From Schmidtea polychroa (lineage: Eukaryota): a DNA stretch of 64,000 nt. Positions within the stretch are counted from its first letter, which is position 1; each line of letters begins with the position of its first letter. Made by a program: the position numbers and the translations under genes. The stretch spans positions 18,540,001 to 18,604,000 of the forward strand of contig CM097885.1 in assembly GCA_044892525.1 (NCBI GenBank), read 5' to 3'. The notes under the pieces are model-generated. The model was not told the origin of the DNA, ran no database searches, and saw only the letters and a program-made list of their open reading frames with translations. Below are positions 43,588-44,945 of this stretch, piece by piece.

Positions 43588-44945
43588 AGTAGATGGATTG
43601 GGCACCGCTGGCACAGGGCACCGCTAGCACAGTACCCCCCCTCCCCCCGTCGGTAAGATTTTCAAAAATATTCTAAGTCTAAAAGTACATTTTTTTTTCA
43701 AGGTCAAATTTAAACAAAGACATATGACTCATCAAGGTCATTTAAACAAAGACCATGACTCATCCGATGACTCATCAAGGTCATTTTCAAGGTCATATGA
43801 CTCATAATATGACTCATCAAGGACAAAAAAATTTTCTCAAGGTCATTTAAACAAAGACCATGACTCATCAAGGTCATTTTCAAGGTCATATGACTCATCC
43901 TATGACTCATCAAGGTCATTGAAACAAAGACCATGACTCATAGTATGACTCATATGACCTTGAAAAATTTTTTCAAGGTCATATGACTCATAGTATGACT
44001 CATCAAGGTCATTTCCACGGTCGTATGACTCATAGTATGACTCATTTGACCTTGAAAATTTTTTTCAAGGTCATATGACTCATAGTATGACTCATCAAGG
44101 TCATTTTCAAGGTCATATGACTCATAGTATGACTCATCAAGGTCATTTCCACGGTCGTATGACTCATAGTATGACTCATTTGACCTTGAAAATTTTTTTC
44201 AAGGTCATATGACTCATAGTATGACTCATCAAGGTCATTTTCAAGGTCATATGACTCATAGTATGACTCATCAAGGTTATTTTCAAGGGCATATGACTCA
44301 TCCTATGACTCATCAAGGTCATTCTCAAGGTCATATGACTCATCCGATGACTCATCAAAATTTTCAAGGTCATTTTCAAGGTCATATGAGTCATCGCGAT
44401 GACTCATCAAGGTCATATTATTATTTTTAAAAAATATTATTATTTTTATTATTATTTTTAAAAATATTATTATTTTATTTTTAATTTTTTCAAAGTTCCC
44501 GCCAACGAAAATTAATAATCGATAGCTCATTTTAAAGCTCAATCCAAGACCTTTCGAATGAGCCATATATCTTATTATTATTATTATTATTATTATTATT
44601 ATTATTATTATTATTATTATTATTATTATTATTATTATTATTATTATTATTATTATTATTATTATTATTATTATTATTATTATTATTATTATTATTATTA
44701 TTATTATTATTATTATTATTATTATTATTATTATTATTATTATTATTATTATTATTATTATTATTATTATTATTAGTATTAATCTATATACACCGAGTCT
44801 ATATACTCTGAGTCTATCCGACAAAATATTTTGTCCCCCTATGGGTAATGCTCACAAGGGTACTGGTCACGCTCAACAAATCAACAAATCAACAAAACAT
44901 ACATTTATTTAAACAATAAAATAATGTAAAATTAACAAAGGTAAA
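43588..44945 (+). repeat. Element C left TIR with ATGACTCAT/TCAAGGTCA array and (TTA)n
   Basis: Inverse match to 56029-57256. Confidence 0.92.

Follow-up and report, generated by a model that had tools for sequence, protein, structure and literature searches.

Which host signals, if any, awaken a virus-like Maverick/Polinton integrated in an animal genome? The window analyzed here (the whole stretch of DNA, 64 kb) holds three related virus-like elements, A, B, and C, and both termini of C carry a long array of short words resembling the binding sites of host transcription factors. The array is real, nonrandom, and probably functional. The explanation that we prefer, with a probability of roughly 0.6, is that selection maintains it as a cluster, variable in length, of exact words of the AP-1, NR5A, and HMG-box types, and that it serves as an enhancer by which host factors would turn on early genes. 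The array names candidate host factors for Maverick/Polinton activation.

Element C spans positions 43588 to 57256, with ends AGTAG...CTACT and a perfect 6-bp target-site duplication (TCCATC) on either side, and is inserted in the integrase gene of sister element B. Its ends fit the AG...CT termini of Maverick/Polinton terminal inverted repeats (TIRs). The TIR arms are ~1.2 to 1.35 kb long, the outermost 60 bp of the left arm being GC-rich and holding two copies of GGGCACCGCT. The features of C are as follows.

43582-43587, plus strand: left target-site duplication, TCCATC, 6 bp
43588-44945, plus strand: left TIR (inner end approximate), beginning AGTAG
43698-44415, plus strand: left motif array, with 30 ATGASTCAT, 25 TCAAGGTCA plus 5 variant copies, and 4 AACAAAGAC
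44572-44781, plus strand: (TTA)70 microsatellite in the left TIR
44909-45409, minus strand: 166-aa open reading frame (ORF), hydrophobic N terminus and coiled-coil-like body, weak coiled-coil-type Pfam matches below cut-off
45410-45514, no strand: divergent promoter region lying ~1 kb from the left array, with TATA-like words and a CCAAT box at 45453
45515-45826, plus strand: Bcl-2-like ORF (weak; Pfam Bcl-2 E 0.01, below cut-off)
46625-47035, minus strand: 136-aa ORF, function unassigned, 88% identity to its counterpart in sister B
47070-47130, minus strand: internal promoter of the 136-aa ORF, TTTAAACAAAGACAT followed by a CCAAT box, the AP-1 site ATGAGTCA, and TATAAAA
47396-47809, minus strand: 137-aa ORF, function unassigned, homologues in sisters A and B
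47883-48320, minus strand: TBP-like gene (Pfam TBP E 1.6e-15)
48420-49046, plus strand: A32-type packaging ATPase (Pfam Pox_A32 E 3.6e-7, above cut-off)
49660-50739, plus strand: retroviral-type integrase plus chromodomain (Pfam rve E 1e-5, Chromo E 0.0013, both below cut-off)
52095-52847, plus strand: double-jelly-roll major capsid gene, truncated to 250 aa, 95.6% identity to a 407-aa protein of B
52919-54655, plus strand: family-B DNA polymerase, C-terminal part (578 codons), polymerase motifs read from the sequence
55530-56021, plus strand: RING-finger gene preceded by a CCAAT box at 55335, which lies ~1.2 kb from the right array
56030-57256, minus strand: right TIR (inner end approximate)
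56530-57146, minus strand: right motif array, with 25 ATGASTCAT, 20 TCAAGGTCA plus 5 variant copies, and 5 AACAAAGAC
57257-57262, plus strand: right target-site duplication, TCCATC, 6 bp

The 6-bp target-site duplication, long TIRs, integrase, A32-type ATPase, and double-jelly-roll capsid of C are features of Mavericks/Polintons. On its gene content, C is an internally deleted derivative rather than a complete member of that group, because the capsid gene stops at 250 codons and both the adenovirus-type cysteine protease gene and the N-terminal part of the polymerase are missing from this copy, the region being deleted; a protease-like frame, judged by eye, lies at 39853-40200 in sister B. The polymerase fragment shows polymerase-B-type motifs in the alignment and, with its 578 aa only, gave no Pfam or PDB sequence match. 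The structure model of the capsid protein of B (pLDDT 86) matches iridovirus, PBCV-1, and mavirus capsids, with a best E of 2e-17. The RING-finger gene is presumably IAP-like, and the 166-aa ORF is transcribed divergently from the Bcl-2-like ORF. Neither the 136-aa nor the 137-aa ORF had an Atlas match; homologue searches gave one close homologue for the former, whose structure model (pLDDT 35) is unusable, and one 44-aa match for the latter. A TBP-like gene is present in all three elements, at 47883-48320 in C, 58929-59393 in B, and 31245-31691 in A. An in-frame (AAT)n microsatellite within the integrase genes of B and C (50049-50109 and 43483-43552) encodes an isoleucine run, and a 38-bp unit without a bZIP word is repeated 3.9 times (98% identical) at 54867-55014, between the polymerase and RING genes of C.

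The two sister elements have the same terminal letters as C and different terminal words.

19024-32868: sister A, perfect 6-bp target-site duplication CTCGAG, ends AGTAG...CTACT
19024-19830, plus strand: left end of A, TTAYRTAA bZIP-type palindromes with DR1 words (AGGTCAAAGGTCA), arranged in part as 26-bp units
32480-32868, minus strand: right end of A, TTAYRTAA and DR1 words as in the left end
32948-61784: sister B, perfect 6-bp target-site duplication GTCATG, ends AGTAG...CTACT
32948-33030, plus strand: left end of B, ACAAAGAC with TGACGTCA (CRE) pairs at a 12-bp pitch and one TTACGTCA
61680-61784, minus strand: right end of B, the left-end array plus one extra 30-bp unit

Judged from its remnants, the region is a nest of insertions, since decayed Gypsy-like pol fragments are split by element A (16275-19023 and 32875-32947) and transposase-like fragments lie at 62459-63846. 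An ORF at 241-831 on the minus strand has, by eye, a Rab1-type GTPase-like start and a proteasome alpha subunit-like remainder and is perhaps a chimeric retrocopy. A candidate host gene at 12696-13577 gave no match in a homologue search.

The sequence-only reading had described about 30 palindromes interleaved with nuclear-receptor-type (NR) words on the left of C, mirrored on the right with another copy number. Counting bears this out, with 30 palindromes and 25 NR words on the left and 25 and 20 on the right. The left palindromes comprise 29 ATGACTCAT and 1 ATGAGTCAT. Copies of TCAAGGTCA lie 22 times on the plus strand and 3 times inverted in the left array, and in the right array 19 point inward and 1 is inverted; relative to the element end, 41/45 are oriented alike. 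For the third word the earlier reading had to be revised: the TAAACAAAGAC that it named is present three times in each array, within the 4 (left) and 5 (right) copies of AACAAAGAC, and it is AACAAAGAC that forms the fixed core, the preceding base being variable (ttta/ttga). We take AACAAAGAC to be an HMG-box word of the Sox/TCF type. A forkhead reading of this word is ruled out, the forkhead consensus RYAAAYA having 0 matches in either array.

Each array begins 110 bp inside its terminus, and the words occupy ~72% of either array. The core unit is 42 bp, with a pitch of 12 bp from AP-1 to AP-1, 8 bp from AP-1 to NR (one base being shared), 12 bp from NR to NR, and 10 bp from NR to AP-1. The AP-1 and NR sites recur every 10.34 to 10.42 bp in both arms (R 0.76 to 0.82), about one per helical turn; this phasing is suggestive only, since its significance depends on the null (p = 0 in 1500, 0.005, 0.009, 0.03, and 0.10 for five nulls) and follows in part from the packing of 9-bp words. 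No gene begins beside the array, the closest promoters are ~1 kb off, and the flanking genes face it.

The window has 55 ATGASTCAT, 45 TCAAGGTCA, and 49 matches to YCAAGGYCR, the NR5A/FTZ-F1 consensus PyCAAGGPyCPu, and every one of them lies in the two arrays; 5 more copies deviate from this consensus. Dinucleotide shuffles of the window give means of 0.82 ATGASTCAT and 1.26 YCAAGGYCR (maximum 4 in 100) against the 55 and 49 observed, but tandem amplification inflates the observed counts, whose members are not independent of one another. We rejected raw copy number as evidence of function on account of this amplification: the array grows by unit gain and loss, and 30 copies are therefore not 30 pieces of evidence. 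The inner flanks of the two arms are near-identical (153/155 aligned bases), whereas four block gaps (~52, 50, 83, and 20 bp) and changes in the spacers set their arrays apart. Being alike outside the array and different inside it, the arms indicate that the array evolves fast through unit gain and loss.

Variation among the copies spares the cores. Within the window, the 55 copies of ATGASTCAT have no variant with one or two mismatches except the central C/G flip, and the AP-1 consensus TGASTCA is exact in 55/55, its center (C/G) alone varying; the 3-bp spacer between AP-1 words has five alleles. Six single-base variants of TCAAGGTCA are present in the window, and none (0/6) touches CAAGG. 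Three of the six are changes allowed by PyCAAGGPyCPu, the SF-1/FTZ-F1 consensus (passages of PMC2233893), and the other three, TCAAGGACA, TCAAGGGCA, and TCAAGGTTA, fall outside YCAAGGYCR, as do two copies of CCACGGTCG. A 42-bp seed drawn at random would contain an AP-1 7-mer together with YCAAGGYCR with a probability of ~4e-6, a value uncorrected for how many motif families there are. The ERR word TNAAGGTCA fits the main NR word, the variants of which fall at positions 1, 7, 8, and 9 and never at position 2. In an ERR site TNAAGGTCA, AGGTCA is fixed and position 2 is free. The pattern of variation favors an NR5A/FTZ-F1-type word over an ERR-type word among the NR5A/ERR-type sites proposed from the sequence alone.

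For 4 of the 24 runs listed, contigs were aligned on 43556-43870: two organism-A runs contributed 16,675 and 5,407, a metagenome 79, and a run labeled organism B 226. The comparison covers 43698-43870, i.e., 173 of the ~720 array bases; 24 of the 30 variant rows lie within the array and were used, the 6 upstream of it being left out. That the motifs are preferentially conserved among copies, as the sequence-only reading expected, is supported by the two organism-A runs, in which 1/105 core, 5/21 degenerate, and 12/47 spacer positions vary in at least 5% of the depth (Fisher p 2.6e-6), the sites not being independent because a similarity of 80% or more was required for alignment and paralogous units stack onto the same positions. 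A manual tally in which no module position was counted twice gave 1/21 versus 9/25 (p 0.013). Invariant positions account for 35 of the 47 spacer positions in the organism-A runs, and over all four runs 2 core, 7 degenerate, and 12 spacer positions vary. The core exceptions are C>A at position 8, at 7% in one run, and changes at positions 6 and 7 in one contig of the organism-B run. At the AP-1 centers C>G is the sole change, found at 4/6 centers (four runs); this flip could stem from inversion of the palindrome rather than from selection. The organism-B run (226 contigs) has the same modules with a spacer unlike any in the window. Loose contig ends before 43588 are mutually discordant (47 and 43 contigs, agreement 0.41 and 0.44), indicating that the C end is present at many insertion sites.

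The ends of B read AACAAAGAC-AT-ATGACGTCAT-CG-ATGACGTCA, with the opening and the 12-bp pitch of C, a CRE palindrome replacing AP-1, and the extra base of the CRE word compensated by a shorter spacer. CRE and TRE are two half-site spacings read by bZIP dimers. The left and right ends of A have 12 and 7 TTAYRTAA, which we take to be a bZIP word of the PAR/E4BP4 type, together with 3 and 1 strict DR1 words. In the 60.7 kb outside the six element ends, TGACGTCA, strict DR1, and YCAAGGYCR each occur zero times and TTAYRTAA 15 times. A bZIP-class word is thus found in the ends of all three families, with a nuclear-receptor word paired with it in two; three random 42-bp seeds would all hold bZIP-class words (broad set) with a probability of ~5e-5 if independent, B and C being not fully so. 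Sister families with near-identical capsids but unlike terminal words, and arms unequal in unit number, amount to a natural experiment. As side observations, a further repeat with TTACGTTGCGG follows the CRE array of B (4 copies left, 1 right), and a block of ~330 to 350 bp that includes the terminal sequence is repeated in the left end of A. Elements C and B form a mosaic over 50685-54655 (capsid 96%, 121-aa protein 93%, 351-aa protein 56%, and polymerase 66% identity). An 85-bp inner-TIR segment is 94 to 95% identical in B and C, the other end sequence differing (44790-44890, 33410-33510, 56080-56180, and 61320-61400).

Array words recur inside the elements. The TTTAAACAAAGACAT of the internal promoter of C is an array word with the core AACAAAGAC. 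Both TTTAAACAAAGAC and an AP-1 site recur in this promoter, and TTTAAACAAAGAC occurs twice in the matching promoter of B (60085-60170), which has a AACAAAGAC word, a CCAAT box, and a TATA, the AP-1 site being found only in that of C. CCAAT boxes also lie upstream of the Bcl-2-like, 137-aa, and RING genes of C. From the presence of array words, a CCAAT box, and a TATA together in one internal promoter, the element seems to use host polymerase II factors, with array words acting as promoter parts. Fixed cores among drifting spacers, the related words of the sisters, and reuse in the internal promoter together argue for selection for host-factor words, and the array of host AP-1 and NR5A-type sites proposed at the outset gains support as one probably under such selection.

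The words could instead bind host factors mainly for replication or excision, as auxiliary origin elements beside a protein-primed terminus, like the NFI/Oct-1 sites of adenovirus ITRs, which employ host factors in replication (passages of PMC5717082); baculovirus hrs double as origins and enhancers (passages of PMC13513840). The position of the array, 110 bp from each terminus and at both ends, and the uniform orientation of 41/45 TCAAGGTCA relative to the end are in keeping with such a role, as is the strong divergence of both the ends and the polymerase (66%) between B and C, whose capsids are 96% identical. We nevertheless regard it as unlikely to be the main role, given that array words are also found far from the ends, in an internal CCAAT/TATA promoter, and that the array extends over 600 to 700 bp with a variable unit number, whereas adenoviral replication sites are single and abut the core origin. 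Help to the origin is compatible with an enhancer, and the two may coexist. An element-encoded protein might also use the array as a subterminal platform by reading ATGAC half-sites, the likeness to host words being incidental: ATGAC is contained in the AP-1 word, the CRE, and the reverse strand of TCAAGGTCAT, and the conserved 136-aa and 137-aa ORFs are both of unassigned function. This proposal, to which we assign a low probability, is disfavored because the NR bases that form the ATGAC half-site, positions 7 and 9, are the variable ones and CAAGG is fixed. Moreover, sister A has the 137-aa gene too, yet other words, and the 13 scanned ORFs of C contain no bZIP, nuclear-receptor, or other DNA-binding domain, TBP excepted.

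Growth of a neutral minisatellite by slippage, from a seed with words that were motif-like by chance, would explain why the arms differ in unit gains and losses; simple repeats are abundant in this genome, copy counts are nonindependent, and short palindromes can be repaired through template switching. Such growth is very improbable, since the cores are conserved relative to the spacers, the nonpalindromic NR and AACAAAG words included, and bZIP-class words are present in all three sister families (~5e-5 if independent, which B and C are not fully). We give hardly any credence to a structural role of the array, whether as folded single-stranded DNA in self-synthesis or through bending of the DNA or positioning of nucleosomes. 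Compared with shuffles, both arms show stronger folding (z -13.0 and -7.8), and the sites recur every 10.3 to 10.4 bp, but palindromic repeats exceed shuffles by construction, the predicted folds are unlike between the arms, with a nearly unpaired centroid for the right arm, and 52 of the 55 AP-1 words hold C on one strand, which leaves a C-C mismatch in hairpins between them.

If the array is an enhancer for host factors, it would become accessible to them as silencing of the chromatin relaxes. Host Jun/Fos-type dimers and an FTZ-F1/NR5A receptor would occupy many sites together, at roughly one site for each helical turn, and a DNA-bending HMG factor would sit at the outer end of the array; the presence and expression of these candidate factors in the host are an assumption of the enhancer model. 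The bound factors would open the ends and activate CCAAT/TATA promoters ~1 kb inward, those of the Bcl-2-like and RING genes and then those of regulatory genes, thereby coupling the activity of the element to stress or mitogen-activated protein kinase (MAPK) signaling and to one tissue. Unit number would set enhancer strength, word swaps would give sister families separate niches, and array-bound factors may also assist the protein-primed origin adjoining the array. If active, the array would also offer a ready-made enhancer that responds to signals and is very densely packed, and its numerous copies could influence how host genes are regulated.

Planarian Polintons are targets of PIWI and are desilenced during differentiation (passages of PMC8532177), FTZ-F1 of a schistosome, also a flatworm, binds an SF-1 element (passages of PMC8673669), and AP-1 acts in injury responses in Hydra (passages of PMC8049744). 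It is from the role of AP-1 in injury responses that the sequence-only reading drew its link to wounding, and by this analogy a wound-triggered reactivation of C is plausible. More speculatively, Maverick families within one animal genome might partition host signaling via swapped modular terminal enhancers, C using AP-1 with NR5A, B the CRE, and A PAR-bZIP with DR1; C would then be a wound- or stress-inducible endogenous virus-like element of a regenerating animal, with many dispersed ends that seed injury-responsive enhancers genome-wide, a scenario that we hold to be doubtful.

Mavericks/Polintons of the adintovirus type share with C the TIRs, 6-bp target-site duplication, polymerase, integrase, ATPase, and jelly-roll capsid (passages of PMC6431247 and PMC8502044), and homologues of Bcl-2, IAP, and TBP are known among them (passages of PMC8502044). 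In contrast to C, the passages of PMC6431247 and PMC8502044 describe no factor-site array in the TIRs of these elements. The nearest precedent is provided by C. elegans repeats that are largely Polinton TIR, for which passages of PMC11414722 mention putative factor sites. A literature search, with subscription journals, Repbase entries, and supplements outside its scope, found no published description of factor-site arrays in Polinton TIRs. Viral contigs scanned with the ATPase, capsid, and polymerase of C gave no relative, and the array pattern had 0 matches in viral contigs. A metagenome scan gave 4 loci (L001 to L004) from 173 pattern matches; L001, L002, and L004 stop at or inside the polymerase (from match coordinates), and L003 had no array in the 1.5 kb examined. 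A single isolated pattern match in a bacterial metagenome-assembled genome (MAG), with no surrounding array, was taken as chance.

Retroviral and retrotransposon long terminal repeat (LTR) enhancers and the enhancer repeats of polyomaviruses and cytomegalovirus carry, in terminal or control-region repeats, host-factor words that vary in number and identity between relatives and set tissue tropism or reactivation. These belong to other classes of elements, unlike C, a self-synthesizing DNA element with its array in inverted repeats. Judged by its words, the array appears to be a variant of a known viral strategy in a family for which we found no earlier description. Baculovirus hrs with clustered CRE/TRE sites were reportedly the subject of work by Landais et al. 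in 2006. These clusters act as enhancers and origins, their CRE/TRE content correlating with enhancer strength (passages of PMC13513840), and like the array of C they consist of repeated units rich in bZIP words and variable in number, hr enhancer strength tracking motif count. The hrs differ in being dispersed 72-bp units, each built around a 30-bp palindrome to which the viral IE1 binds and each with 0 to 2 TRE, whereas in C the words make up 72% of a terminal array and are mostly TRE, alternating with nuclear-receptor words. With its terminal 9-bp words in place of dispersed units around a 30-bp imperfect palindrome, the array is not a baculovirus hr. The adenovirus ITR carries NFI, Oct-1, Sp1, and ATF sites (passages of PMC5717082), so that host-factor sites, bZIP (ATF) included, are placed in the terminal repeat of a protein-primed linear genome, as in C. 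These are single sites for other factors within ~130 bp, in contrast to the 50 to 60 sites over 600 to 700 bp and the unequal arms of C. By analogy, then, the array may be likened in its mode of action to both the hrs and the host-factor sites of the adenovirus ITR, while belonging to neither.
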